Shown: positions 48,924 through 63,030, counted from the first letter of the stretch. The stretch: 64,000 nucleotides of DNA from Candidatus Latescibacterota bacterium (GCA_965204375.1 OZ241986.1:2432001-2496000), one strand, 5' to 3'. A program made the numbers and translations. The notes: generated by a model not told the origin, from the sequence alone.

Positions 48924-49538
48924 TTAAATGTCTATCGCATCACTATTTTCGGGTATAATCGCCCAGAGCGATTGCCCGACCAGACGGTGATACAGGCTCC
49001 AAAAGCACGCAAGCGGCAAGCCCACCACATTGTAGAAGCAACCAGATATAGATTGAATAAATGCAGATGCACGCCCCTGCGCGCCATAAGCGCCAGCTTT
49101 GTCCATAGAATCCCCAGTGGCGACATAGCGTGCAATATCCTCCGATGAGAGCACGCGCATGGTGACGTGAGTAGTAGCAACCTCTGTAAGGGTCTGTCCG
49201 GTTTCCGTATCTGTAAGGGCCAGTCCGGTATAGACCTGATGGGTTTTTCCCGAAAGTTGCGCCAGCATGTCTTCGGCGTGTTTGGCATCATTCGGTTTCT
49301 CGAAAATCGCATTTTCCAATACCACAACTGTATCGGCTCCCAAAACGAGCGCGTGGTCAAAACGATGGACAACCGCCTTTGTTTTTCGCTGTGCGATTTC
49401 CCGCACATGTTCGGCAGGTGGCAAGATGGTATCCAGCGCCTCATTGGCATTGCTCGGCGCGATTTCAAACGGAATATCCAACAAGCGCAATAAACTCGCA
49501 CGCCTGGGTGAGGCAGAAGCGAGAATCAGTTTCTTCAT
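48924..49538 (-). CDS. maf: Maf-family nucleotide pyrophosphatase
   Basis: [32 protein letters not shown]. Confidence 0.95.
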
Positions 49539-49978
49539 ATCTCTGAGTCAATCATCAATGTAACGGGGCCAGTGTTGTGAATTTCAACCTGCATGTACGC
49601 GCCAAAAACGCCGGTTTCAGTGTGAATGCCAAAGGTGCAGAGGCACTGGACAAATTGCTCGTACATGGATTTGGCAATATCTGGTGGAGCAGCCCGATTA
49701 AAACTCGGACGGCGGCCTTTGCGGGTATCGGCGTGCAGGGTAAATTGAGAAACCACCAGCGCCTGCCCACCCGTATCGAGCAGAGATCTGTTCATTTTGC
49801 CCTGATCGTCTTCAAAAATTCTCAAATTTACACATTTCTCGGCAACATATTCCATATCTGAAAGACCATCGGTATCGCTAATACCCAGCAAAATCAAAAG
49901 ACCGCGATCAATTTGACCAACGACTTGTTCTTCAACGCGAACCGTTGCCCTGCATACCCGCTGAATCAATGCCCGCAC
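49535..49978 (-). CDS. dtd: D-aminoacyl-tRNA deacylase
   Basis: RALIQRV, LRIF, SQFTL, GRRPSF, N.GPVT; GTG start after GGAGG. Confidence 0.95.
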
Positions 49979-50012
49979 GCTACCCTCCAATGCTAAAAAC
50001 GCCTATACCATT

Positions 50013-50149
50013 TATAACCTATTTGTGGCATGTGTGCAAGGCGAAAGATATAAGAGACGCGGCAAAACAGGTTGGCACCATCCCGGCGCAATCGCAAATA
50101 ACAGGAACAAAATGAGCCAAACTACTTGTATTTTATTGAAGATATTCGT
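50013..50149 (-). pseudogene. Degenerate, internally deleted duplicate of the lptD locus
   Basis: 50059-50149 matches lptD 62741-62831 (about 80/91 nt, ATG changed to ACG); 50013-50049 matches the lptD downstream region 60442-60478 (29/37). Confidence 0.85.
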
Positions 50150-50288
50150 ATTTTCGTACTGGTTATAAACCGCAATTTTCGACGAAGATCCGCACGAATG
50201 AGAGTTCATGGGAGCATCTGGTCCATCTCGGTCCTGCCCGCAGGACTACGGATGATTCCCATCAGCCTGTACTGAAAAGAGAAAAGAG

Positions 50289-51485
50289 ATGAATCGAGGA
50301 AAAAGCTTACTCACGGCTGGTGCCATCCTTCTCATATCCTTGATTGTTGCCTACCTTATGGTCTGGCTTAAGCCCGAGCCGGAAATCCGATCGCTTACTT
50401 CCCGGGCACCTTTCGCAATCACGGCCCCCGCAGTGGTCGGCACCGGTGCAATTCCCGTGTACGGTGCAGGGACAGTTCGACCTGTTGCAAAGATAGATGT
50501 CGCTGCCGAAATCAATGGCAAGGTTATTTGGGTAGATCCGGCCTTTCAGAGTGGCGGACGAGTCCGAAAAGGGCAGGTTCTCTTCCGCATTGATGACGCC
50601 GACTACCGCAACAGAGTACAGCAAGCGCGTGCCAACGTGGCCGCGCAGCATGTCGCACTCCTCCGGGCGCGTGAAGAAGCCCAGATCGCACGCGCTGAGT
50701 ACGCGCAATTCAGACGTGACCAAACGGACATAGCCGAAGCCAATCCCCTTGCGCTGTGGGAGCCTCAGATCGAGGCAGCTCGAGCCGCGGTGGCCAGAGA
50801 TAGTGCGGTGCTCGCCGATGCCGAGTTGGCCTTGGCACGCACAAAAGTCCATGCACCCTTCAGAGGCGTCGTGCAGGCAGAATCAATAGATATGGGGCAG
50901 TTCGTGGTGGCTGGGCAGAGTGTAGGACGACTTTACGCGACCGATGCAGTAGAGGTGGTGGTTCCCCTCTCCGATGCCAACGCGGTTCTCATCCCAGGCC
51001 TCTGGGAGCTAAAAGCGGGCGACGGAGATAGGCAGGTCAGGGCCCGTGTCATCGCTGAATACGGCGATGGAAGCTACGCCTGGGAGGGCTATGTAGATCG
51101 AGCAGAAGCATCCCTGGACGAACAGACGCGGACTATTGACGTCATCGTGCGCGTTCCGAATCCCTTTGCGAGCGGCACCCGAGTTGAGGCGGCAGGCGTG
51201 GATCCTGGCCCGCCCCTTCTCGTGGGCAAGTTTGTGGAAGTGCAAATTGAGGGAATCACCCCAGATCGGTACTTCATCCTGCGGCGGTCAGCACTCAGGC
51301 CGGGCAACGAGATTTGGGCAGTACGCGATGACACGCGATTGACCATCGTCCCGGTGCGCGTCCTTCAGCGTTCCGATGATCAGGTGTTCGTAACCGGCAC
51401 TCTGAAAGCCGAGCAGGCGGTCGTCATAGGCGGGATTCAAGTCGCAACCGAAGGCATGGCTGTGCGGATCGGAGGTGATCCATGA
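50289..51485 (+). CDS. RND efflux periplasmic adaptor subunit
   Basis: N-terminal anchor, lipoyl half-motifs (GRVRKGQVLFRID, APFRGVV), coiled-coil hairpin, D..TRT. Confidence 0.9.
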   Translation: MNRGKSLLTAGAILLISLIVAYLMVWLKPEPEIRSLTSRAPFAITAPAVVGTGAIPVYGAGTVRPVAKIDVAAEINGKVIWVDPAFQSGGRVRKGQVLFRIDDADYRNRVQQARANVAAQHVALLRAREEAQIARAEYAQFRRDQTDIAEANPLALWEPQIEAARAAVARDSAVLADAELALARTKVHAPFRGVVQAESIDMGQFVVAGQSVGRLYATDAVEVVVPLSDANAVLIPGLWELKAGDGDRQVRARVIAEYGDGSYAWEGYVDRAEASLDEQTRTIDVIVRVPNPFASGTRVEAAGVDPGPPLLVGKFVEVQIEGITPDRYFILRRSALRPGNEIWAVRDDTRLTIVPVRVLQRSDDQVFVTGTLKAEQAVVIGGIQVATEGMAVRIGGDP

Positions 51486-54400
51486 ACCGAGAAGATGGTT
51501 CCGCACGGGAACGCCCCGGACCGATAGCTTACATGGCGAGCAACAGTGTAGCCGCCAATCTATTGATGTGGGCGATCATCGCCGCCGGGCTGGTGTCGCT
51601 GACCGGTCTCGATCGGGAAGCCTGGCCCACCACCCCTTTCTACCATATCGAAGTCTCCATGGCCTATCCCGGTGCCACACCGGAGGAGATCGAGGAGTCG
51701 ATCGTCGTCAAGATCGAGGATCAGGTCAGCGGGCTCGATGACGTGAAGGCGGTCAAGTCCGTTGCGGCCCCGGGCATGGCCTCCGTGCGGGTTCAAATGG
51801 ATTTCGATACGGACATGGCTCGGGCCTTGGACGATATCGAGTCTGCTGTCAATCGCATACAGTCCTTCCCGGCCGGTGCCGAACGTCCACGGTTCCGGGA
51901 GATGAACAACCGCCTGAGCATGATGCGGCTCATCGTCCACGGCGCCGTCTCCGAGCGCGCGCTGAAGGAACTGGCGTACCAGATCGAGGACGACCTCACG
52001 ACGCTCCCCTCCGTGTCCCAAGTCGAGGTCAGCGGTATTCGGAAATACGAGATATCTATCGAAGTACCGCTTCATCGCCTGAGAGCACTTGGACTCACCC
52101 TCACCGACATCGCCAACACGATTCGTCGCAGTTCCCTGGAACTGTCCGCTGGCAGCATCGATACCCGGGAATCCCAGGTGAGGGTCCGCACCCTCGGACA
52201 GAACTACGACCAGCAGGATTTCGAGGAAATCGTCCTTCTCAGCGGTCGTGACGGCACGGTCCTGCGCCTTGGAGATATCGCCGAGGTCCGCGACGGCTTT
52301 CAGGAAACCGACCTGATTGTGCGGCACCAGAACCAGCCCGCTGTATTCGTCGAGGTCTATCGCGCCGATGGCGAGCAAGTAATGGATGTCGCCACCACCG
52401 TCCGAGAACACCTGGCTAACGAAGTGATCCCGTCCCTGCCCGACGGAGTGGGCATCACCATGTGGAATGACGAATCCCAAGTCTATGAGGAACGCGCCGA
52501 TCTTCTCCTCAAGAACGGTATCCTGGGCCTGTTGCTGGTGCTGATCTCCCTCAGCTTGTTTCTCGAAATCCGGCTCGCGCTTTGGGTCGCCGTGGGCCTC
52601 GCCGTTTCGGGTATCGGTGCCCTCGCCATCATGATGGCATTCGACGTGGCGATCAACACCATCAGCCTTTTCTCCTTTGTCCTCGCCATAGGAATCATCG
52701 TCGACGATGCCATCGTCGTGGCCGAGCACATCCACTACGAACGCAAGCGGGGAACACCCGGAGTCACGGCCGCGATCCGCGGCGTACGGCGGATCAAAGT
52801 GCCGTTGACCTTCGCAGTTCTGACGTCGGTGGTGGCCTTCGTCCCGCTGCTGTTCATCCCCGGCGGCGTAGGTGAGGTGTGGCGGGCCCTGCCGATCATC
52901 ATGATCGCCATGCTGCTGGTTTCCCTGGTCGAATCGCTGCTGGTGCTGCCCAACCACCTGTCCCACCTGCACGGCCCGGAGTGGGTGCCGGCCAATGCCT
53001 TCGACCGGTTCTTCGCACGGCTCCAGGGGCGCGTGGACGAGCTGCTGAACAGATTCGTGCAAGGGCCTCTGGACCGGGCCCTGCGGTTCGCGACGGATCA
53101 GCCCGGGGTGACGATGGCGGGGGCCGCGGGAATGCTCGTGTTGAGCATCTCCCTGTTGCCCGCGGGGATCGTTCCTACCACGCTGGCCGCTGATGTGGAG
53201 GGGGATATCGCGACGGTCGTCCTGGAGATGCCCGATGGGACGACCGCTTTGAGGACGTACGAAGTGGCGCAGGAACTGGAGGCCGCAGGCCACCGGGTCA
53301 TCGAACGACTCTCGCGCAACCGGCCCGCAGACGCGCCACGGCTGCTGACCGGCGTAACAGTGACCGTCGGACAGGGCTCGAGACTCGAGGGCGGGCTCAA
53401 TCCGGAGCCTACCCTCAATCCGGAAGCCAATATCGCCACCATCGAGTTCAAACTCCTGAGCGCCCAACAGAGAGAGATCTCCACCGGAGAGGTCGTGCAG
53501 GCATGGCGCGAGGAGGTGGGTGTGCTGCCCTATGTGCGCGGTATCACCTTCAGCGGCGCGGTCTTCGACCTGGGCAACCCGGTGGAGGCCGTGTTGTCGC
53601 ATCCTGACCCGAAGCTGCTCGCCCGGATTGCAGACTCTGTGGTCGATGGACTCCGAGGAGTGGGAGGCGTCTACGACGTACGCTCGGATCACGCTCCAGG
53701 CATCCCGGAAATTCAGCTCGAGTTGCAGCCGGAAGCGCGAACCCTTGATCTCACACTTGACGACCTGGCCGGGCAGGCACGCGCCGCGTTCTTCGGCGCT
53801 GAGGCGGTCCGGGTGCAGCGCGGCCGGGAAGAGGTCCGGGTCTATGTGCGCCTGCCCGCCGATGAGCGGAATTCCATTACCGATGTCGAAGGTTATCACA
53901 TCCGCACCCCGGGCGGGGCCGAAGTCCCGGTCATGAGTGTGGCTTCGCTGAACCCAGGCGTGTCGCCGCCGGCCATCCGGCGCAAGGACGGCCAGCGCGT
54001 CGTCACGGTCACGGCGGACGTGGACGCTGCGGTGATTTCCGGTGACGAAGCCAACGACATCCTGGCCAATTCGATCCTCGCGGACCTGACCGCCTTGCAC
54101 CCTGGCCTGACATACAGCTTCGGAGGGGAACAACAACAGCAACTCGAATCCCTGGATGCGCTGTACCGCGGGTTCGCGGTCGCCCTGATCATGATTTTCG
54201 CGCTGCTTGCCATCCCTCTCCGCTCATATACCAAACCGTTCATTATTATGGCCGTCATCCCTTTCGGGTTCATCGGGGTGATCCTGGGTCACTGGGTCCT
54301 CGGAGTAGCCCTGAGCGCGGTATCCTTCATGGGCATCTTCGGCCTGAGCGGGGTGGTTGTGAACGATTCCCTGGTCATGATCGATTTCATCGATCAGAAA

Positions 54401-54676
54401 CTCAGGGATGGCGCCCCGGTGCGAACTGCGATCATAGAGGGTGCCAAAGGGCGTTTCCGTCCGATCATGCTCACTTCTGTGACGACTTTCCTCGGCTTCA
54501 CGCCCCTCATTCTGGAACGCGCCATTCAGGCCCAGTTCCTGATCCCCTTTGCCGCATCGCTCGGCTGCGGCATTCTCTTTGTCACGGCCATACTTATGAT
54601 GGTCGTTCCCGCTCTTTCCACCATCCATCTGCGTCTGACTGCGTCGCGGGGCCGTTCCGGCGCCGGTACCGCGTAA
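51482..54676 (+). CDS. RND efflux permease (AcrB/AcrD/AcrF family)
   Basis: YPGATPEEIE, IGIIVDDAIVV.E, RFRPIMLTS.TT; 1064 aa. Confidence 0.93.
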   Translation: MNREDGSARERPGPIAYMASNSVAANLLMWAIIAAGLVSLTGLDREAWPTTPFYHIEVSMAYPGATPEEIEESIVVKIEDQVSGLDDVKAVKSVAAPGMASVRVQMDFDTDMARALDDIESAVNRIQSFPAGAERPRFREMNNRLSMMRLIVHGAVSERALKELAYQIEDDLTTLPSVSQVEVSGIRKYEISIEVPLHRLRALGLTLTDIANTIRRSSLELSAGSIDTRESQVRVRTLGQNYDQQDFEEIVLLSGRDGTVLRLGDIAEVRDGFQETDLIVRHQNQPAVFVEVYRADGEQVMDVATTVREHLANEVIPSLPDGVGITMWNDESQVYEERADLLLKNGILGLLLVLISLSLFLEIRLALWVAVGLAVSGIGALAIMMAFDVAINTISLFSFVLAIGIIVDDAIVVAEHIHYERKRGTPGVTAAIRGVRRIKVPLTFAVLTSVVAFVPLLFIPGGVGEVWRALPIIMIAMLLVSLVESLLVLPNHLSHLHGPEWVPANAFDRFFARLQGRVDELLNRFVQGPLDRALRFATDQPGVTMAGAAGMLVLSISLLPAGIVPTTLAADVEGDIATVVLEMPDGTTALRTYEVAQELEAAGHRVIERLSRNRPADAPRLLTGVTVTVGQGSRLEGGLNPEPTLNPEANIATIEFKLLSAQQREISTGEVVQAWREEVGVLPYVRGITFSGAVFDLGNPVEAVLSHPDPKLLARIADSVVDGLRGVGGVYDVRSDHAPGIPEIQLELQPEARTLDLTLDDLAGQARAAFFGAEAVRVQRGREEVRVYVRLPADERNSITDVEGYHIRTPGGAEVPVMSVASLNPGVSPPAIRRKDGQRVVTVTADVDAAVISGDEANDILANSILADLTALHPGLTYSFGGEQQQQLESLDALYRGFAVALIMIFALLAIPLRSYTKPFIIMAVIPFGFIGVILGHWVLGVALSAVSFMGIFGLSGVVVNDSLVMIDFIDQKLRDGAPVRTAIIEGAKGRFRPIMLTSVTTFLGFTPLILERAIQAQFLIPFAASLGCGILFVTAILMMVVPALSTIHLRLTASRGRSGAGTA

Positions 54677-54707
54677 TGCACTTCATGATGCAGGGAGGCG
54701 AAAACCG

Positions 54708-56735
54708 ATGGCTGATACTACCGAGGGTTTGACGACCCAACCGCTGACTTTGACTCAAGAACTCATCCTGATGCTCCTCAACGAGGAGACTGGCTACTTT
54801 CACCAGGTACCCGGCTGGCATTTGAACTGCGCCGTGGTCGGTGCGGTGCTCGCGGAGCTTTCACTCAGATCTCGCATCGACACGGACATGGAATCCCTGT
54901 TCCTTGTGGACGAGTCGGAAACCGGCAACCCTGCCCTGGACCCCATTCTGAAAGAAATTGCAGCCGAATCTGGTCAACGGGACGCCCAGTACTGGATTGA
55001 ACGGCTCGCTCCCCGTGCGGAGTCGATCATTGATTCGGTTCTGGATCGCCTGGTTGACCTGAAAATCCTGGAATACCACGACGGCGAATTCTGGACGCTG
55101 GCTCCTACCGCTTGGCGTGGGGAACTGTACGGCAAGTCGGAAGAGGGCACTGCAGGCCAATTCATAAGAACGCGGATCAGCAGGGTCATCTTCACCGACG
55201 AGATTCCCGATCCGAGAGATGTCATCATCATCTGCCTCATCAATACCTGCGACGTCTTTCGTTTCATATTCCAGCTGGATGAGGAGGCCGAGAAGCGCAT
55301 CGAGTTCATCTGCAAGATGGACCTGATCGGCCGCTCCCTGGCCGCTGCGGTCTCTCAGAACCTCGCCGGCCCGGCCCTTCGACGTCCTGCCCTTACCAGG
55401 AAGATTCCGACGGTTTCGCTGCCCAAGCTGCTGCTGAACCCGCACATTCGAGACGGCAACCTGAACGCGCTCTTCGGGAACCTTGCGGAGGAGTACGGTC
55501 CGGTGTTCCAGATCCGCCCTCCCTTCTCGTCGCCCATGATCTTCCTGGCCGGACTCGAGACGAATCGCTGGGTGCACAAACGCGGGCGCATGTACCTGAG
55601 AACGAGGGACTACTTCAGCGACTTCGAGAAGGTCTACGGTGCGTCCGGCGTCCTGCCCGCCCTGGACGGTGCCGATCACTTCCGGCTTCGCAAGTCCTTG
55701 TCGCCGGCCTATTCTGCCGGGAGGCTGGGAGGGCAGCTAGATCAGCTCTACAATCAGGGGCGCAAGTACATGGCGAGCTTGACGGTTGGGGACTCCTACC
55801 GCGCCACGTCCATGTGCCGGGAGATGGTGAACGCCCAGCTCTCGCCACTGTTCATCAGCGTCGATACCCAGGACCTCATGGACGACCTGATGAAGTACAA
55901 GGAACGGGCCCTCAGCGTGCACATCGCCAAGCTCCTGCCCGGATTCACACTGAACACCCCGGGCATGAGACGCCGGGCGAAAGCCCTGGATACACTGATG
56001 CAGCGGGTCCAGGACATCCATACCCCTGCCCAACGGGCGGACAGCCCGCGGGACCTGGTGGACGATTACCTCAGTCTGCACGCGAGCGACCCGCAGTTTC
56101 TCCCGGAGTCCAACCTACTGTTCGCCTTTTCCGCGGCCTTGATTGCCAGCGTGTACCTCGGCGATACGTTCAGCCTCATAGTCTACGCCATGGCGTCGCA
56201 GCCCGACCTCTACGCCAGAATCCAAGCCGAAGCAGATGCCTTGTTCGCCAAGGGCGACCCTGAAAGAGAGGACTTCACCCCCGCCAACATCGACGTGACG
56301 CACCGCTTCCTCATGGAGTGCCTGCGCATGTACCCGATCGTCTCCATGTCCATTCGGAACGTGATGAATACGTGCGTGGTCGAGGACTACGAGTTGCCCG
56401 TGGGGGAACGGGTCCACATTGCCATGACCGCCACGCATTACATGAGCGAGGTCTTTCCCGACCCCTACAAGTTCGACATTGACCGCTACCTGCCGCCGCG
56501 CCATGAGCATCGCAGCCCCGGGTACGCCCCGTACGGGCTGGGTACGCACAAGTGTCTCGGCACCCGGTGGATGGAGTTGCACCTGGCGGCCAACTTGCTG
56601 ATGCTGGCGCACTATTTCAAGATTGAGGTGTCGCCGGCGAAGTACAAGCTCCGTTTCAGTCCATTTCCGTCACTGAAACCGAGCAAGAAGCTGAAGTTCC
56701 GCATCACCGAGCAGAGACGGGAGTTGTTCGCCTGA
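54708..56735 (+). CDS. GPP34/GOLPH3-domain cytochrome P450 fusion
   Basis: N-terminal ~220 aa: LTLTQELILMLL...GAVLAELSLRSRI...DPRD (GPP34-like). C-terminal P450: ECLR (ExxR), F.DPYKFDIDRY, heme YGLGTHKCLG. Confidence 0.8.
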   Translation: MADTTEGLTTQPLTLTQELILMLLNEETGYFHQVPGWHLNCAVVGAVLAELSLRSRIDTDMESLFLVDESETGNPALDPILKEIAAESGQRDAQYWIERLAPRAESIIDSVLDRLVDLKILEYHDGEFWTLAPTAWRGELYGKSEEGTAGQFIRTRISRVIFTDEIPDPRDVIIICLINTCDVFRFIFQLDEEAEKRIEFICKMDLIGRSLAAAVSQNLAGPALRRPALTRKIPTVSLPKLLLNPHIRDGNLNALFGNLAEEYGPVFQIRPPFSSPMIFLAGLETNRWVHKRGRMYLRTRDYFSDFEKVYGASGVLPALDGADHFRLRKSLSPAYSAGRLGGQLDQLYNQGRKYMASLTVGDSYRATSMCREMVNAQLSPLFISVDTQDLMDDLMKYKERALSVHIAKLLPGFTLNTPGMRRRAKALDTLMQRVQDIHTPAQRADSPRDLVDDYLSLHASDPQFLPESNLLFAFSAALIASVYLGDTFSLIVYAMASQPDLYARIQAEADALFAKGDPEREDFTPANIDVTHRFLMECLRMYPIVSMSIRNVMNTCVVEDYELPVGERVHIAMTATHYMSEVFPDPYKFDIDRYLPPRHEHRSPGYAPYGLGTHKCLGTRWMELHLAANLLMLAHYFKIEVSPAKYKLRFSPFPSLKPSKKLKFRITEQRRELFA

Positions 56736-56773
56736 CGACATGGCTCCTTGTGGGGCCAGGAGGGAACCACCAA

Positions 56774-57805
56774 ATGCGACTGGGCAAACTATCGAGAGAG
56801 CTGAGAGACGCGTACCGGGGATCGCGCGTCGCACGTCGGGTGCAGCACTTTGACGGCTGGCTGCGACGGGCGGCGGAGTCCGGTGGCGCGGGCGGGTACG
56901 ATCACACTGAAACTGTGAAAGACTATTACGACCTTTGCAGCGGGTTCATGGTGTGGGGCTGGGGCGAGTCCCTGCACTTCGCGCCCCTCACGCCTCATGA
57001 GAGCCTGGAGGAATCCAAGGTCCGGCATCAGCGGGTGATGATCTCCAAGCTGAAGTTGCAACAGGGTATGACGGTGGTCGACGTTGGTTGTGGAGTCGGC
57101 GGCCCCATGCGCCGCGTCGTCCGTGAGGCTGGTGTCAGGGTTGTAGGAATCAACATCAATGAGATCCAGTTGGAACAGGCGAAAAGGTTGAACGCCGAGG
57201 CAGGGCTCGACCACATGGTCGATTTCGAGACGTGCAGCTTCATGGACATGGACACCATCGAGGACGACACCTTCGACCGGGGTTATGCCATAGAGTCAAC
57301 GTGTCATGCGCCGGACAAGCAACGCTCCTTCGCGGAGATATTCCGCGTACTGAAACCCGGTGCCCTGTTCTGGGGGCAGGAAATGTGTCTGACGGGCCTG
57401 TTCAATCCGAAGGACTACCGGCACCGGGCCATCAAGCAGGATCTCATGCGCGGCATTGCGCTGAACGACATCGCCACCTTCGGGGAAGTGAATCACGCGC
57501 TCGAAGCCGCGGGATTCCACGTCATGGAAGGGATGGACCGGGACGTCCAGAAAGGACCCTCCACACCCTGGTATCACCCCATGAAGAGTCGCCACGGGAC
57601 CTTGGGCAACGCCTTGCGCAGGCTTCCCTGGGGCCGCAAAGCGGTCATCGCAGGATCGAAGCTGGCTGAAGTACTGCGGCTGTTTCCGAAGGGCTCCGCG
57701 GAAGTCGTCCGACTTCTGGACCGGACCGCGGAGGCTTATATCGCAGGCGGCAAGGCGGGTATCTTCACGCCGCTGTACTGTTTCTTAGCTCGTAAGCCTC
57801 TTTAG
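56774..57805 (+). CDS. Sterol C24-methyltransferase-like (SMT/ERG6 family)
   Basis: YYD...WGWGESLHFAP, DVGCGVGGP, YAIESTCHAP, LKPG, C-terminal GIFTPLY...RKP; ATG 56774 after GGAGGG. Confidence 0.85.
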   Translation: MRLGKLSRELRDAYRGSRVARRVQHFDGWLRRAAESGGAGGYDHTETVKDYYDLCSGFMVWGWGESLHFAPLTPHESLEESKVRHQRVMISKLKLQQGMTVVDVGCGVGGPMRRVVREAGVRVVGININEIQLEQAKRLNAEAGLDHMVDFETCSFMDMDTIEDDTFDRGYAIESTCHAPDKQRSFAEIFRVLKPGALFWGQEMCLTGLFNPKDYRHRAIKQDLMRGIALNDIATFGEVNHALEAAGFHVMEGMDRDVQKGPSTPWYHPMKSRHGTLGNALRRLPWGRKAVIAGSKLAEVLRLFPKGSAEVVRLLDRTAEAYIAGGKAGIFTPLYCFLARKPL

Positions 57806-57857
57806 GTCCGGGTGATGGTTTCTGACGCGCCGCTGTCCCCGGTTGCCGTTTGCGAGG

Positions 57858-59222
57858 TCAGCCCCGTGCTCTCTTGAACCGGCAGCCGTACATGATGCGC
57901 CCGTAGTGGTTGAACGAACGCTTTGCTACGGGATCGTCGAAGTGGTAATCCGTTCCGATCTGTCTTGCGGCGGCGAGCCCGGTGATGAGGCAGGTTTCCT
58001 GACTGTTGATCAGCGTGTGAGCGCCGCAGTACCACGTTCGTCTCTTTCCCTGAATGAATCGGAACAAGTTGACGAGCAATGCAACCTGACGCACGTCATG
58101 GACAATGTGTTGAAACCGCTGCTTCTTGATGATCTTTCGTTCTTCAATAGGGCTTACCGCGTTGTAAGTTACCAGACAAGGCTTGTCAGACCGATTAGCC
58201 CAGGGCTGCTGGTTGTGCATGATGTACGTGATTTCATAATTGTCCGGCCTCGCACCGTACAGTTCGATATGATTGCTCCGCGTTGCCAGCGGCTTCACTT
58301 CGTTGTGGGGAAGGACTGAGGAGTCCCAGTGGGCGACCGCAAGCTGGTGGGTGTCGCGGTCGTAACGTATCGACGAGAGAATATAGCGTTCAAGCCTGGT
58401 GGGTCTGTCGAGAATCTTAAGCGTCTGGTCCGCATTGCATGCAAAAACCACCTCGTCAAACGTCTCCCGCACACCGTCTTCATCCTCGACCACGACACAG
58501 GATGCCCGCCGATACACCTTTGATACAGGCCGGTTGAGATAGATATTGTCCTGAAAGTTGGCCGACAGGTTCTCGTAGATGCGCCGTGTTCCCTGGTCCC
58601 ACGTCCACATGGATGTAGCTGTTTCGATGTCGAAGAATTCGAGATACCTCGAAAAGAGTGCTGCAGGCAGATCGAATACGTTCGTTGCCAGAACGAAATT
58701 GAGGAACATGGGTTTCAGAATCTTGTACCTGAAGTCTCCGGAAAATCTTCCCAGATTCAGGACAGTCCCCATGCTGATGTAATTGAACGGGTTGAGAGCG
58801 TTCAGCAATCTGGACTGGGAACGGCTCAGCCAACCAAACCAATGCAGATGCCTCAAGACTCGTTGGAACTTCGCAATCTCGGACTGTAACTGCTCCTTGA
58901 TATCGGAATCGAAATCGTGAGCGTAAACACCGTCCCTATACTTCACGCTGTAGCTGAATCTGGTGTCGATCAGCTTGATGCCGAACTTCTCCATTAACAG
59001 CAGGATGTGGTTATAGACCGATGGGATACAAGCGGTGACGGAGATGTCGAAGGGAATCGAACTGCCGTCATCTTGAGGCATATCGACAGTAACAGCATTC
59101 CCGCCAATCTGTCCCTGGGCCTCGAACAGCCGAAAATCAAATCGGTCCGGGTGATGATGGAGTGCCCATGCGGCCCCCAGCCCTGAAACGCCTCCACCAA
59201 CAATGGCAATTCGCCGTGGCAT
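57858..59222 (-). CDS. FAD-dependent oxidoreductase (amine-oxidase-like, of the type found beside cyclopropane fatty-acid synthases)
   Basis: IVGGGVSGL, FEA...IGGNA.TV, TY.M..Q, IQGKRRTWYCGA.....E..L.TG. Confidence 0.75.
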   Translation of the reverse strand: MPRRIAIVGGGVSGLGAAWALHHHPDRFDFRLFEAQGQIGGNAVTVDMPQDDGSSIPFDISVTACIPSVYNHILLLMEKFGIKLIDTRFSYSVKYRDGVYAHDFDSDIKEQLQSEIAKFQRVLRHLHWFGWLSRSQSRLLNALNPFNYISMGTVLNLGRFSGDFRYKILKPMFLNFVLATNVFDLPAALFSRYLEFFDIETATSMWTWDQGTRRIYENLSANFQDNIYLNRPVSKVYRRASCVVVEDEDGVRETFDEVVFACNADQTLKILDRPTRLERYILSSIRYDRDTHQLAVAHWDSSVLPHNEVKPLATRSNHIELYGARPDNYEITYIMHNQQPWANRSDKPCLVTYNAVSPIEERKIIKKQRFQHIVHDVRQVALLVNLFRFIQGKRRTWYCGAHTLINSQETCLITGLAAARQIGTDYHFDDPVAKRSFNHYGRIMYGCRFKRARG

Positions 59223-59270
59223 TATCTCTGCCTCCCTGTTGCTTTGGTGTTTGGTGGTGCTTCGAAAATC

Positions 59271-60356
59271 TCATGTTTCGTTTTCTTGCGAAATTGGCTG
59301 TTCAGGATAGAACTGCCGACAATATCGACGGTATTTCCCTATGGGGCCGTCAGCCCGACACAGCCTGGGAGGAGACCGATACTGCTTCCTTTCCCAGATC
59401 ACCACATCCTGCCGGACATCCCGTTTCTGTTGTGACATCAAAAAGCGATTCATCAGCCTGTGGCGCAGCTTCATCGGCAGAAACCCCAGACCTGAGATGA
59501 ATCGCCGGGGCTTGCGGATCTCCCGCAGTTGGCTGACCAGTACAAGATCGATGAGGGTGCCGTCAATGGGCGTTGCAAGTACCCACAATCTCGCATTCAT
59601 ATCGATAGTCTTCTCGTGAATTTCGACGAAGGAGTAGCCCAGTCCATAGACGTGGGTGATGGCCGAGGTTTCGTACACGAGATCCTTTACACCCAGGATC
59701 TTGCGAACGCGTTTGAAGTCGAAGCAACTCTTCAAATAGGCACCATCTACCGTTACCGAACCGATCGGATTCACATTGTCGTAACCATGCACGTAGGCCA
59801 GATGTCCCAGATCCACGGAGTTCTCTGTCGTTTCCTGGGGATGGCCTCGGAATCGGAGGGTGTGGGATCGCAATTCGGACCACTCCGCGTCCTCCGTCGG
59901 TTTAGCTGGCAACTCCCACTGCGGCGGCCGACCGCCACTCCCAAACCAGGCGAAAACCATGCCGAGGATCTCTCTGATCTCATATACTTTCAGTCTCGCG
60001 GCTTTGGGAGCCGGGGCGTTCGGAGTCGCAACGCATTGGCCGGTCGTATCGTACTCAAACCCGTGAAACGGACAGACGAGGCGACCGTTGCATACCTGGC
60101 CGCCGACCTCCGGCCCCAGGTGCGAGCCCAGGTGCGGACATACCGCGTCGGCCACACAGACACGGCCTGCTTCGTCGCACCAGACGACGATTTCTTCTCC
60201 CAGCCACGTCTTCTCGATCAGTTTCTCTCGCAGAATGGATTCGCGACTTGCGACGAAATACCACCCATCGGGGAACGGCGGTAGCGCACCCGCGTCATTC
60301 ATGGCCGGTTGATCAGTACTTCTGGCTCGTAAATCCGCAGATTCTGTCAAAGACAT
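59271..60356 (-). CDS. Rieske non-heme iron oxygenase, KshA/Neverland (steroid 9-hydroxylase / 7-desaturase) type
   Basis: CPHLG...CPFHG, ENSVDLGHLAYVH, QDVVIWERK, DGPI..YRR...QFY. Confidence 0.82.
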   Translation of the reverse strand: MSLTESADLRARSTDQPAMNDAGALPPFPDGWYFVASRESILREKLIEKTWLGEEIVVWCDEAGRVCVADAVCPHLGSHLGPEVGGQVCNGRLVCPFHGFEYDTTGQCVATPNAPAPKAARLKVYEIREILGMVFAWFGSGGRPPQWELPAKPTEDAEWSELRSHTLRFRGHPQETTENSVDLGHLAYVHGYDNVNPIGSVTVDGAYLKSCFDFKRVRKILGVKDLVYETSAITHVYGLGYSFVEIHEKTIDMNARLWVLATPIDGTLIDLVLVSQLREIRKPRRFISGLGFLPMKLRHRLMNRFLMSQQKRDVRQDVVIWERKQYRSPPRLCRADGPIGKYRRYCRQFYPEQPISQENET

Positions 60357-60479
60357 AAAGATCTCATCCTCAGGAGTTTCCCAAAGGCACCCTGAACAGC
60401 GCCGATGTTATGAGATATCCCCATGCAAAATCACCGAAATCTATAAGCCATTTACGGCAGGTGGACAAGGTGAAAGATT

Positions 60480-62831
60480 TTATATTCCAAATCCGCCGCG
60501 TCGGTGCTCAAACTTTATTTGCGGGATGTCCTTAATATTGATCTTAAAAAAGAACCCCTTATTAAAACCCGCGGGATACCACGAAAATCGCGCTTCCCAA
60601 CAGTGCAGGTCGCGGTAAAGCGATAGGCTTTGCGCCGAGATTTTGGCATCGGGTAGAACATCGATATTGATCGAATAGTCAATTCTTATAAATTGGCGAG
60701 GATTGATACCAACATCTGCTTTGATCCAAGATGTTTTGCTCGTTGTATTGCCGAACCGCCGCATCGCAATATAGTGCGAAAGATTGAATCGCCACGGCTG
60801 GCTGGCACCGCCGAAATCGCTGTACAGATCGCGTTCAAAGCCAAAATCTGCGCCATATCCCCCCCTGTATCCACCACCATACCCATCGTCATATCCGCCG
60901 TCATATCCATCAGCAATAGCGGACTGTATAACCCTATTGCCTCGTTCACCTTGACCACCAGAAAAACGGAAATTGGAGGTAATAGTCAGGTTCTGCATGC
61001 GCGGATGCAAAAGCGACCGCTGGCCTGTACTGTCATAGAGCGTATGGGTCATCGCAATGCGGACATCCACGCGGCGATCGGGTTTGAGAGACGCGCTGGT
61101 GCGAAGTGGACGCCATTTTTGTCTCGGCGCGTTAAAATCGTACCCCATTGACAGATTGAGAGTCGCCAGAGTAAAGCGACGCACATCGTCGTCGCGCTGA
61201 GTTTTGAGTTCAAAAGTATTGCCAATATTAAAATTTATGCTGCGTCTGGCATCGTCCCATCTGCGATTGCCTCCAAACCCCATTGTTCCTTGAAAGATGC
61301 TTCCCGATTGGTTGTAATTGAAATTGAGCCGGGGCTGAAAGCGATGCCGAATGCCGCGCAACCGACCAATTTGCGGTTGGAATATGCCGTATAATGTCGT
61401 ACCCGAAGACAGTGCCGCGTTGTAAGACGTGCGTCGGGTTGTAGAATCGGTATCGCTATATATAAATTCTTCGCCAAAATTAAAGCCCGGCGTGAGATCG
61501 AGCCAGCCCAGGGGGCGGTGTTGGCTGTTGACGGTGACGCGATTTTGAAGAGAGACGCGCTCCGTATTGGGCGCAGGATCGGGATTGCGCGCAAAGTTAT
61601 TCGACAAGGTGCTCGAAAAACCGTAATAAAAGGCGCGATACCACGGTCCTGTAGCAGATGTCATTTCATTGTCGCCAAATATGCGGCGTCTATTTTGCCG
61701 AAAGCTGAGGCGGGGAAAGCCCTGAAAGCTATTATTTTTTGTCCTCAGGTCGCGGTAATACGTCAGACTACCATCAATGCTACGCCCGGATTCTGTCCAG
61801 CGTTTATCAAAAGAAAAACTGGACCTCAGTTGCCGATTGAGATAGCGATAGAGATTATTGCTATTGCGTCGGTCAAAGTAGGTACTGGTCGAAAACTGCC
61901 CGCTCCCCCTGATATTGGTCGTGGCGTTGATGCGTTGCTGGTGTTGCAAATTAAAGCGCCAATTGTGAGCCGTCGCATCGCCAGAGGTATCGTGGTCATA
62001 TCCGATATCCATTGAGCCGCTAAACCGATTGCGCCTGGCATAGGCAAATCGCGATTCGAGCAAAAATCCACCGCGCTCGCGCAAAGTGCTCTTAACCGTG
62101 GCATCCCAGTATTCACTCGGCGCAAAATAATATCCCAAATTGTGAACAAAAATGCCATCTCGGCTGTTACTACCCACGCCTGGCGTGAGCAAACCCGATT
62201 GCCGCCCACGCTTGACTGGAAAAACGAAAAAGGGAACCCAGAAAACGGGAATCGGGCCAATGCGAAAGGTGACAGACCGCCCAATCGCTTTGTCGTCTTG
62301 CAAAATACGCACATTTTTGCACAAAAAATCGTAGTGTGCATGGTCGCGATCACAGGTACTCAAAGAGAGATTCAGTGCATTCAGTGCTTTTAGACCGTCG
62401 AGTGCAATACGGGCACCGCGATAGTGTTTGCGCTGATGTGACGCGCGTCCATCTCGCACGCTACCGCGTTCTGTATCGAGGTCATAGACCATGTACTCAC
62501 CCGATATTTTCTCGCTACCGCGGGTAAATTGGGGTGGTCCCACGGTTTTTGCCCCGGTGGAATCGGGCAATGCGCGTGCTGTGACGTGCCGGGTGTTTTG
62601 ATCGTACGTGATATGACCGGCTTTGAGTTGCAGATCGCGATAGCGCAAGGTGGCATTGCCGGCCAATTCCACGCGCCTGGCCTGCACATGATAAACGACC
62701 TCGTCGGCATCAAACACTATAGAATCGCCAGCGGCTTTTTGCGGCAAAACGGGTTGGCACCACCCCGGCGCAATCGCAAATAACAGGAACAAAACGGGCC
62801 ACACGGCTTGTGTTTTATTGTAGATATACAT
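60480..62831 (-). CDS. lptD: LPS-assembly protein LptD (putative)
   Basis: Signal peptide; OstA-like N-domain; STC, R.SGLL.P, GYYFA.SEYWD; C-terminal RDLHCWE. Confidence 0.85.
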   Translation of the reverse strand: MYIYNKTQAVWPVLFLLFAIAPGWCQPVLPQKAAGDSIVFDADEVVYHVQARRVELAGNATLRYRDLQLKAGHITYDQNTRHVTARALPDSTGAKTVGPPQFTRGSEKISGEYMVYDLDTERGSVRDGRASHQRKHYRGARIALDGLKALNALNLSLSTCDRDHAHYDFLCKNVRILQDDKAIGRSVTFRIGPIPVFWVPFFVFPVKRGRQSGLLTPGVGSNSRDGIFVHNLGYYFAPSEYWDATVKSTLRERGGFLLESRFAYARRNRFSGSMDIGYDHDTSGDATAHNWRFNLQHQQRINATTNIRGSGQFSTSTYFDRRNSNNLYRYLNRQLRSSFSFDKRWTESGRSIDGSLTYYRDLRTKNNSFQGFPRLSFRQNRRRIFGDNEMTSATGPWYRAFYYGFSSTLSNNFARNPDPAPNTERVSLQNRVTVNSQHRPLGWLDLTPGFNFGEEFIYSDTDSTTRRTSYNAALSSGTTLYGIFQPQIGRLRGIRHRFQPRLNFNYNQSGSIFQGTMGFGGNRRWDDARRSINFNIGNTFELKTQRDDDVRRFTLATLNLSMGYDFNAPRQKWRPLRTSASLKPDRRVDVRIAMTHTLYDSTGQRSLLHPRMQNLTITSNFRFSGGQGERGNRVIQSAIADGYDGGYDDGYGGGYRGGYGADFGFERDLYSDFGGASQPWRFNLSHYIAMRRFGNTTSKTSWIKADVGINPRQFIRIDYSINIDVLPDAKISAQSLSLYRDLHCWEARFSWYPAGFNKGFFFKINIKDIPQIKFEHRRGGFGI

Positions 62832-63030
62832 AATTTTTAGAAATGTTTGCGGATTTTTTGGAGTACAAACGTAAATTCGAGGATTGGAAAAGTCAACAGG
62901 GGTTCCACGACGGAACCACTGGATTAATGCTTGGCTTCCTATCCTCTATAAAGAAGAAAATACCTCAATGGTTCCGTTTTTATTGATATATTTCAGCGGA
63001 ACCTGTATCTTTACTTTTCGCGGCAAATAT

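Follow-up and report, generated by a model that had tools for sequence, protein, structure and literature searches.

What does a bacterium that encodes no sterol-building cyclase do with a set of enzymes drawn from sterol metabolism? The question is raised by six genes at positions 50289 to 60356 of a 64,000-nucleotide stretch of Candidatus Latescibacterota DNA (GCA_965204375.1 OZ241986.1:2432001-2496000; "the window" denotes this entire stretch). They encode a resistance-nodulation-division (RND) pump with its membrane fusion protein (MFP), a fusion of a GPP34 domain and a cytochrome P450, a divergent protein of the sterol methyltransferase (SMT) family termed SMT-B, a flavoprotein and a Rieske oxygenase. 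The initial annotation read this cassette as acquired and as taking up exogenous, possibly host, sterols, alkylating, desaturating or oxidizing them, and exporting the product. All six are genuine, uninterrupted genes, and purifying selection acts on them: dN/dS lies between 0.09 and 0.34 for 24 of the 25 pairs of cassette genes compared, the remaining pair being undefined. Sequence comparison favors, with a probability of roughly 0.7, a cassette of two modules that passes between lineages by horizontal exchange and serves the late tailoring of sterols and their export; the best reading, at the same level, is tailoring independent of uptake, in which sterols from the host or from co-symbionts would be methylated at a position other than C-24.

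Genomic context bears out the connection to sterols. In a Nitrospirales locus (L029), genes for a CYP51-like P450, ERG24, SdmA, SdmB, a canonical SMT, the flavoprotein, an outer-membrane protein, the Rieske enzyme, SMT-B and the GPP34-P450 follow one another in this order, and a similar locus (L034) adjoins an oxidosqualene cyclase (OSC) gene. Relatives of the flavoprotein (66% identity) also occur in clusters of the type OSC-SdmA-CYP51-SdmB-ERG2, from which the rest of the cassette is absent (L196 to L198, and part of one in L260). The profile of the P450, the KshA kinship of the Rieske protein and the sterol-sensing exporters of related loci, all described below, point in the same direction.

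The genome around the cassette supports a modification-only setting. In the source genome (one contig of 6.34 Mb, 95.98% complete, 5.48% contamination), no squalene-hopene cyclase (SHC), OSC or squalene epoxidase was found, in searches whose positive controls matched in 2 of 14 genomes each; the initial annotation had noted for the window that squalene and oxidosqualene cyclases are absent. ERG4/ERG24 likewise has no match in the genome, with a family that matched L029 and none of the control genomes, and no cyclase was detected in any of the 20 genus relatives searched. Carriers elsewhere were sampled as the best 80 of at least 546 SMT relatives from a genome scan (74–96% identity), the set to which the locus counts below refer. 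An OSC-type cyclase is present in nine of these 80 genomes, only an SHC-type cyclase in 15 and neither in 56 (E≤1e-20; many are incomplete metagenome-assembled genomes (MAGs), and the two types were told apart by score and a motif that we take to be diagnostic). Because so few carriers hold an OSC, modification without synthesis appears to be the usual state.

The methyltransferase of the window (METHYLTRANSFERASE) is probably not a standard C-24 SMT; it is instead an altered type that would not add the classical C-24 carbon. It has both the methyltransferase domain and the Sterol_MT_C domain, and it keeps 23 of the 25 residues that Brown and Welander list as common to all functional SMTs (preprint 10.64898/2025.12.19.695621, available part), the changes being T78→S and F89→L. 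Residue numbers were mapped from the motifs and spacing of the preprint alone, and the canonical paralogues support this mapping: six of eight SMTs from the same loci have all 25 residues. None of the 79 SMT-B clade members does (one of the 80 loci had no open reading frame (ORF) call and was left out); 24 residues are kept in 3 proteins, 23 in 45, 22 in 27 and 21 in 4. The S-adenosylmethionine (SAM) motif, H90 and E195 are invariant in the clade, whereas Y81→M, F89→L, Y223→Q and the replacement of the Region IV Trp by Met are fixed in all 79, and position 249 is Ile in 78. In the window protein, Region I (Y81-E82-Y83) reads M-V-W and Tyr223 is Gln; other representatives have Y81 in 73 of 86 cases and Y223 in 58 of 86. 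The protein also differs from 24-isopropyl (propylating) SMTs, with Ile249, Met81 and Trp83 in place of Gly249 together with Phe81 and/or Phe83. A FastTree phylogeny was computed from near-full-length proteins (91 out of 150 representatives plus 26 locus proteins). In it the SMT-B clade branches within the SMT family by a long stem (support 1.0), while the deep nodes are weakly supported. A single-sequence fold of SMT-B (pLDDT 33.5) was discarded.

These features bear on the possibility that SMT-B is an ordinary ERG6-type enzyme alkylating host desmosterol or 24-methylenecholesterol at C-24, as first proposed. The retained Sterol_MT_C domain, SAM motif, equivalents of H90, D125 and E195, and high residue count would fit such an enzyme, and many sponge-symbiont SMTs are C-24-active, according to the available part of PMC10070321. 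The fixed aromatic losses, the contrast between none of 79 clade members and six of eight paralogues having all 25 residues, and the near-universal Ile249 make it improbable; in a Chlamydiae SMT, G249I halted further methylation (10.64898/2025.12.19.695621, available part). A canonical SMT stands beside SMT-B in seven of the 80 loci, which suggests a different job for SMT-B. Of the earlier assignment to SMT/ERG6, the domains and most functional residues stand, while Regions I and IV are remodeled; with two of the 25 active-SMT residues lost, ordinary ERG6-type alkylation at C-24 is not supported, and neither is the direct link to C-24 sterane biomarkers.

A published Nitrospira MAG offers a parallel. 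In the accessible portion of PMC10070321, gene IDs ...279 to ...274 of this MAG are SMO/OSC, CYP51, ERG24, sdmA, sdmB and SMT. Four IDs past that SMT, at ...270, comes another SMT of more divergent sequence. L029 shows that gene order, with exactly three genes (flavoprotein, outer-membrane protein, Rieske) between its two SMTs. We infer that gene ...270 is an SMT-B member and not among the active SMTs, since the Nitrospirales SMT-B lacks T78 and F89 of the preprint's definition.

Given a sterol substrate, the reaction of SMT-B would be, as a tentative first choice, the O- or enolate-methylation of an oxidized product. C-24 methylation of a special nucleus is a weaker candidate, and C-26/27 chain extension, like cyclopropanation, C-23 methylation or another reaction, is weaker again. 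A bolder version, which we regard as unlikely, would have SMT-B be the sterol C-26 methyltransferase that PMC10070321, in the part available, describes as undiscovered, or the bearer of other new sterol-methylating chemistry, so that symbionts lacking a cyclase export "sponge-specific" sterols. Several observations fit it: the catalytic His and acids are kept and the pocket changes are fixed, the neighbors of SMT-B include C-24 SMTs of a kind for which Delta-25 products are reported, and the flavoprotein occurs at three loci of the Aplysina aerophoba metagenome, from a sponge whose main sterol is 26-methylated (PMC10070321, same portion). Against it count the loss of the cation-stabilizing aromatics and the bulky residue 249. 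The cassette also seems more widespread than 26-methyl sterols. As far as PMC12541326 is available, the source of such alkylations is described as unsettled.

Among the neighboring SMTs, one canonical-type protein (L030:3884-4906, minus strand) has all 25 residues together with Phe81 and Gly249, the combination proposed for 24-isopropyl candidates (10.64898/2025.12.19.695621, available part); Gly249 alone occurs in L035, L071 and one L019 paralogue. Separately, a 477-residue SMT-B homologue (P0059) also matches KshA_C and may be an SMT-Rieske fusion or a read-through.

The P450 retains the heme-ligating Cys616 and the ExxR motif (E537, R540) and has lost a different part of the canonical machinery. 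Aligned through its paralogues, the I-helix shows a one-residue deletion at the acid and Tyr483 at the Thr position, the Tyr being present in all 66 near and nine of ten far homologues. A HMMER alignment to CYP51 places the gap elsewhere, and there the downstream Thr is kept in only 35 of 66 proteins. Judged from sequence, the acid-alcohol pair is lost under either alignment, which suggests substrate-assisted or peroxide chemistry, the behavior to which loss of this pair is tied in P450s generally. A profile built from 28 sequences has M. capsulatus CYP51 as its best PDB match (E 7.6e-38; next non-CYP51 match 7.4e-30). The protein shares the heme Cys and ExxR with CYP51 and lacks its I-helix His-Thr pair and family-level identity (~20% to M. 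capsulatus CYP51; P450 family membership conventionally takes 40%). The source genome has two P450s, both GPP34 fusions. The second (L083, G000:C1:5310054-5312033) is 35% identical, keeps a canonical I-helix with its acid-Thr pair, and has no cassette neighbors by tblastn; the same is true of the neighborhood of a short stand-alone GPP34 protein (L179, G000:C1:6138921-6139517).

In this fusion, GPP34 precedes the P450 domain in one chain, and we infer that it docks the enzyme to the membrane. The same domain fusion has been given another role: PMC11706023, in its available part, reports it from sponge symbionts only and proposes an effector, so that the protein would be secreted, bind phosphatidylinositol 4-phosphate (PI4P) and block phagosome maturation, with its neighbors incidental. 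In Vps74, the basic PI4P pocket comprises W88/R97 and K178/R181, and R97 is one of the mutated residues (PMC2806290, part available). In the near homologues the corresponding column holds Val, Ala, Ile or Thr and never Arg (66 of 66), in a weak alignment (E 0.13-0.23) that leaves the K178/R181 region unaligned. The protein has no N-terminal hydrophobic signal and its gene is operonic with the pump and SMT-B; the main text of PMC11706023, as far as available, contains no match for "sterol", "steroid" or "methyltransferase". We regard an effector role as very improbable here.

The Rieske protein belongs with the KshA/Neverland group. Its best PDB matches are KshA (E 3e-22), it contains CxH..CxxH, E/D-x3-D-x2-H-x4-H and a KshA_C domain, and both metal motifs are present in all 62 full-length homologues; the Rieske spacer is longer than the 16–17 residues given for Neverland. 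Its Atlas neighbors carry KshA_C, some of them auto-named cholesterol 7-desaturase. It is distinct from SdmA, scoring 36.5 bits against NF052579 (cut-off 600), a model to which the SdmA-like gene of L029 scores 414.7. With KshA as its best solved relative, the enzyme could in principle open the ring as the entry step of steroid catabolism. This is the least probable of the alternatives: the cassette has no KshB, no Steroid_dh match was found (KstD was not searched for), no HsaC/BphC-type dioxygenase exceeded the cut-off (nor did the controls), and a catabolic module would have no use for a methyltransferase or an exporter. Electron-transfer partners are absent from the window, as first noted, neither a Fer2 domain nor another Rieske domain being detected there. 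The sole protein with Fer2, FAD and NAD domains among 15 scanned lies elsewhere in the genome, as do three small Rieske ferredoxin-like proteins. Elsewhere too are two proteins of about 600 residues in which Pfam detects an N-terminal Rieske domain and nothing else (L132 and L133, G000:C1:339710 and 4794563).

The flavoprotein appears to be an accessory component. The compact clusters that contain its divergent relatives (L196:1794-9350, L197, L198, L260), which come from other metagenomes, comprise OSC, SdmA, CYP51, SdmB, ERG2, the flavoprotein and a GAF-domain ABC transporter, with no ERG24 in the locus. In clusters of the L196–L198 type it may be an undescribed enzyme of the sterol pathway; the available part of PMC10202945 does not mention such a flavoprotein. 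A role as replacement for the missing ERG24 was rejected, as the two co-occur in L029, L200 and L257.

The pump of the window is of the AcrB type and not of the BstA/HpnN type (HpnN models, 17-20 bits). Across the carriers, a lipid-type exporter is encoded as a whole ORF in 66 of 80 loci, as RND in 42, MMPL-A in 14 (all with Chloroflexota titles) and MMPL-B in 10, and the three types are mutually exclusive. MMPL-A and MMPL-B alike score above the cut-off of the Sterol-sensing Pfam family; they match HpnN models too, but far under the cut-off. An outer-membrane factor is present in 14 of the 80 loci and missing from the window's copy. Loci of the Nitrospira/Nitrospina type (L018, L019, L020, L029, L030, L034, L035, L068) have an extra outer-membrane beta-barrel, often with a tetratricopeptide repeat (TPR) protein, and these are possible sterol uptake or carrier components.

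The association of these genes is conserved across distant lineages. Within 10 kb of the SMT gene, tblastn detects the P450 in 76 loci, the Rieske enzyme in 69, RND in 45, the flavoprotein in 41 and MFP in 21 (partial genes and P450 paralogues of ~43% identity included), and the P450 lies within 400 bp of the SMT gene in 63 of 79. Gene order and strand vary. The loci span 11 phylum labels, which are submitter titles and imperfect (some "Gemmatimonadota" may be Latescibacterota). On a quick IQ-TREE phylogeny, the labels must change 19 times where 10 would be the minimum, and its starred clades mix Gemmatimonadota, Acidobacteriota and Rhodothermota, or Chloroflexota and Actinomycetota. Of the sequencing runs holding cassette DNA, five of 23 are labeled sponge metagenome, the others being coded or called just marine metagenome or metagenome. 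Among 80 flavoprotein loci from JGI metagenomes, 38 have the contig prefixes that the Brown papers, in their available parts, give for Petrosia, Sarcotragus and Aplysina metagenomes.

Taken together, the tailoring of foreign sterols would proceed as follows. A sterol made elsewhere, by the sponge, in the diet or by OSC-bearing co-symbionts, would partition into the cell envelope. The Rieske enzyme would desaturate or hydroxylate the B/C ring, at C7 as Neverland does or at C9 as KshA does, and the optional flavoprotein would shift or reduce a double bond. Anchored to the inner membrane through GPP34, the P450 would oxidize this already oxygenated substrate by a non-standard route, and SMT-B would methylate the product at a site other than the C-24 that is classically alkylated in desmosterol or 24-methylenecholesterol. 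Export of the result, for detoxification or for delivery to the host, would fall to the RND pump; the outer-membrane channel and the electron donors would act in trans. The sterol uptake that had been proposed drops out of this scheme: no uptake system is encoded. The sterols could come from the host, as first suggested, or from co-symbionts with de novo clusters.

Several observations weigh against this scheme. The solved relatives of the flavoprotein, LkcE (E 3e-24) and 2b9w (E 4e-12), are non-sterol enzymes. Foldseek searches with the P450 model (pLDDT 82.6) end in a tie between the oleic acid enzyme CYP184A1, CYP51 and BM3 at 14–21% identity. AcrB-type pumps and sterol-sensing matches are not substrate-specific, and neither the cassette nor the window supplies a KshB-like partner. 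Nitrospira gene ...270 is apparently not among the active SMTs, presumably after tests on two sterols. The variable gene content of the cassette, detailed below, argues against a fixed linear pathway. Finally, two squalene/phytoene synthase genes in the source genome make an endogenous isoprenoid substrate possible; they are adjacent (L130 and L131, G000:C1:3900045-3901624) in this genome without a cyclase. The Foldseek tie, the flavoprotein's resemblances and the two synthase genes, along with the carriers whose only cyclase is of the SHC type and the HpnN matches of the MMPL partners, would also suit a cassette in which enzymes recruited from sterol pathways tailor and export a non-sterol lipid, such as a fatty acid, a hopanoid or an acyclic isoprenoid. 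We consider this quite unlikely: the affinities of four genes, each independent of the others, are with sterol families; in the loci seen, the cassette and the flavoprotein relatives join OSC and not SHC clusters; and most carriers, like the source genome, yielded neither cyclase type.

The cassette is organized as two converging units in a GC-rich insert, as the initial annotation described (Table 1). The plus-strand unit has gaps of -4, 31 and 41 bp, the first being a 4-bp overlap of the MFP and RND ORFs, and on the minus strand the Rieske gene is followed by the flavoprotein gene after 48 bp. The SMT-B ORF opens at a GTG at 56750; the ATG at 56777, behind a GGAGG, agrees with homologue starts. 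Over 50289-60356 the GC content is 0.592, whereas the genome averages 0.508; one of 1267 10-kb windows reaches the cassette's value, and GC3 is 0.60-0.79 in the cassette genes against 0.49-0.55 in the flanking genes. Scans for promoters and terminators gave no excess over shuffled sequence (2 vs 4.1 and 6 vs 8.5). Two RNA runs matched the cassette only in small shares (0.09 and 0.07), as contigs of relatives that may derive from DNA.

Table 1. Cassette genes, chromosomal flanks and insertion scar, in window positions.
Feature	Position	Strand	Support
RND periplasmic adaptor (MFP), 398 aa	50289..51485	+	TIGR01730 139 bits vs cut-off 94.9; HlyD_3; N-terminal membrane anchor (hydropathy)
AcrB/AcrD/AcrF-family RND permease, 1064 aa	51482..54676	+	PF00873 (ACR_tran) E 1.6e-157; under every named NCBIfam cut-off
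GPP34 (aa 15-216) + cytochrome P450 fusion	54708..56735	+	PF05719, PF00067
Divergent sterol-methyltransferase-family protein (SMT-B), 342 aa	56777..57805	+	PF08241 (Methyltransf_11) E 3.6e-17; PF08498 (Sterol_MT_C) E 9.2e-16
Amine-oxidase-fold flavoprotein (LkcE / polyunsaturated fatty acid isomerase-like), 454 aa; accessory gene	57858..59222	-	PF01593 (Amino_oxidase)
Rieske non-heme iron oxygenase, KshA/Neverland group, 361 aa	59271..60356	-	PF00355 + PF19298 (Rieske + KshA_C), E 9e-25
dtd (D-aminoacyl-tRNA deacylase), left chromosomal flank	49535..49990	-	PF02580; adjoins lptD in insert-free relatives
lptD-like gene, right chromosomal flank	60480..62831	-	PF19838
Left-flank scar, collapsed second lptD copy	50009..50153	-	40 bp similar to DNA past lptD stop (60438-60477) + 96 bp similar to lptD start (62740-62835)

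Comparison of the insertion site among relatives, together with the spread across phyla, supports acquisition. Thirty dtd loci were retrieved, 19 of them from the genus (the window's own included). Within the genus, cassette genes come next to dtd in ten, lptD directly in six and after ~1 kb in one, and neither in two; in the 11 loci of other genera, dtd is always followed by lptD. A sponge-metagenome contig joins 50036 to 60466, an empty site. The left-flank scar (blastn identity 78% for the 40-bp part and 88% for the 96-bp part) is a collapsed second copy of lptD, which suggests integration with duplication of lptD, and the lptD 5' remnant is present also in four insert-bearing relatives (L088, L089, L094, L098). 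One relative (G016) has the cassette at another site. SMT-B occurs among 40 relatives in seven of 20 from the genus and in six of 16 from a sister family, and the closest loci that share these flanks bear the title Ca. Latescibacterota; no SMT relatives were found in viral contigs or plasmids. Relative to L003, the plus-strand operon has dS values of 0.055-0.087, compared with 0.22-0.35 in the flanks and 0.38 in the Rieske gene, which indicates that the operon was exchanged recently as a unit. Content at the one site varies, with SMT missing in G004, a flavoprotein remnant in G010 and no MFP in L004 and L008; L003 lacks the flavoprotein. Two relatives have other P450 subtypes at this site (L121 in G004, 74%; L122 in G005, 62%): G004 lacks an SMT between P450 and Rieske, and the G005 contig stops after the P450. 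Among relatives, P450 subtypes of 55-74% occur without SMT-B.

Parts of this system were known already, namely SMTs in bacteria, the de novo clusters that Ircinia symbionts carry and the GPP34-P450 fusion (PMC10070321, PMC9531527 and PMC11706023, each in its available part). The bacterial C-24 SMT clusters of Brown 2023 (PMC10070321; 10.64898/2025.12.19.695621; available parts) share the SMT family and the sponge-symbiont setting, whereas SMT-B has a rebuilt pocket and its cassette is mostly without OSC; the readable supplement files of PMC10070321 (files 1 and 7 excepted) contain no match for Rieske, P450, GPP34 or Golgi. The GPP34_L study of Ferreira et al. counts 656 such fusion proteins and, in its available part, has no word of sterols or of a neighboring SMT, Rieske enzyme or pump; the effector proposed there would bind PI4P, while here, on the weak alignment, the pocket Arg appears not to be kept. 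The Ircinia-symbiont CSG (ERG24-CYP51-LSS; Kelly et al. 2022, available part) likewise spread horizontally, over about ten phyla, under purifying selection and with SMT1/ERG6 enriched, but it is a de novo system built around a cyclase, and the window cassette has none of its three core genes, lacking ERG24, CYP51 and LSS/OSC. KshA and Neverland/DAF-36 share with the window's Rieske enzyme the KshA_C domain, both metal motifs and a conserved C-terminal block; the relationship is distant, and the window has no linked KshB and no catabolic context. The best precedent for how such a system could work is the DAF-36/STRM-1 route of nematodes, with the dinoflagellate 4-SMT (PMC6997595, PMC9136925; available parts), in which a sterol auxotroph tailors foreign sterol with a Rieske enzyme and an SMT homologue. 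The STRM-1-type homologue lacks the Region I aromatics, a loss shared with SMT-B, and takes a non-carbocation route; SMT-B differs in keeping the GWG..HF core and Sterol_MT_C. No description of the cassette as a unit, or of a C-26 SMT, was found in the literature, on which subscription papers and further supplements may bear.

These results connect sterol chemistry with the GPP34-P450, a marker of sponge symbiosis that has until now been interpreted as an effector against phagocytosis, and they suggest that many symbionts unable to build sterols may still rework and export them. Where "SMT1/ERG6" genes are counted in sponge metagenomes, the totals take in a large clade whose members probably leave C-24 unalkylated. 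Four expressible enzymes with unusual active sites bear on the origin of unconventional demosponge sterols, and with it on the C-26 methyltransferase still sought as the source of the 26-methylstigmastane biomarker. If the C-26 assignment were true, cyclase-less symbionts of many phyla would be the place where sterols of the sponge or its co-symbionts are converted to precursors of the aplysterol or 26-methylstigmastane type and exported to the host.

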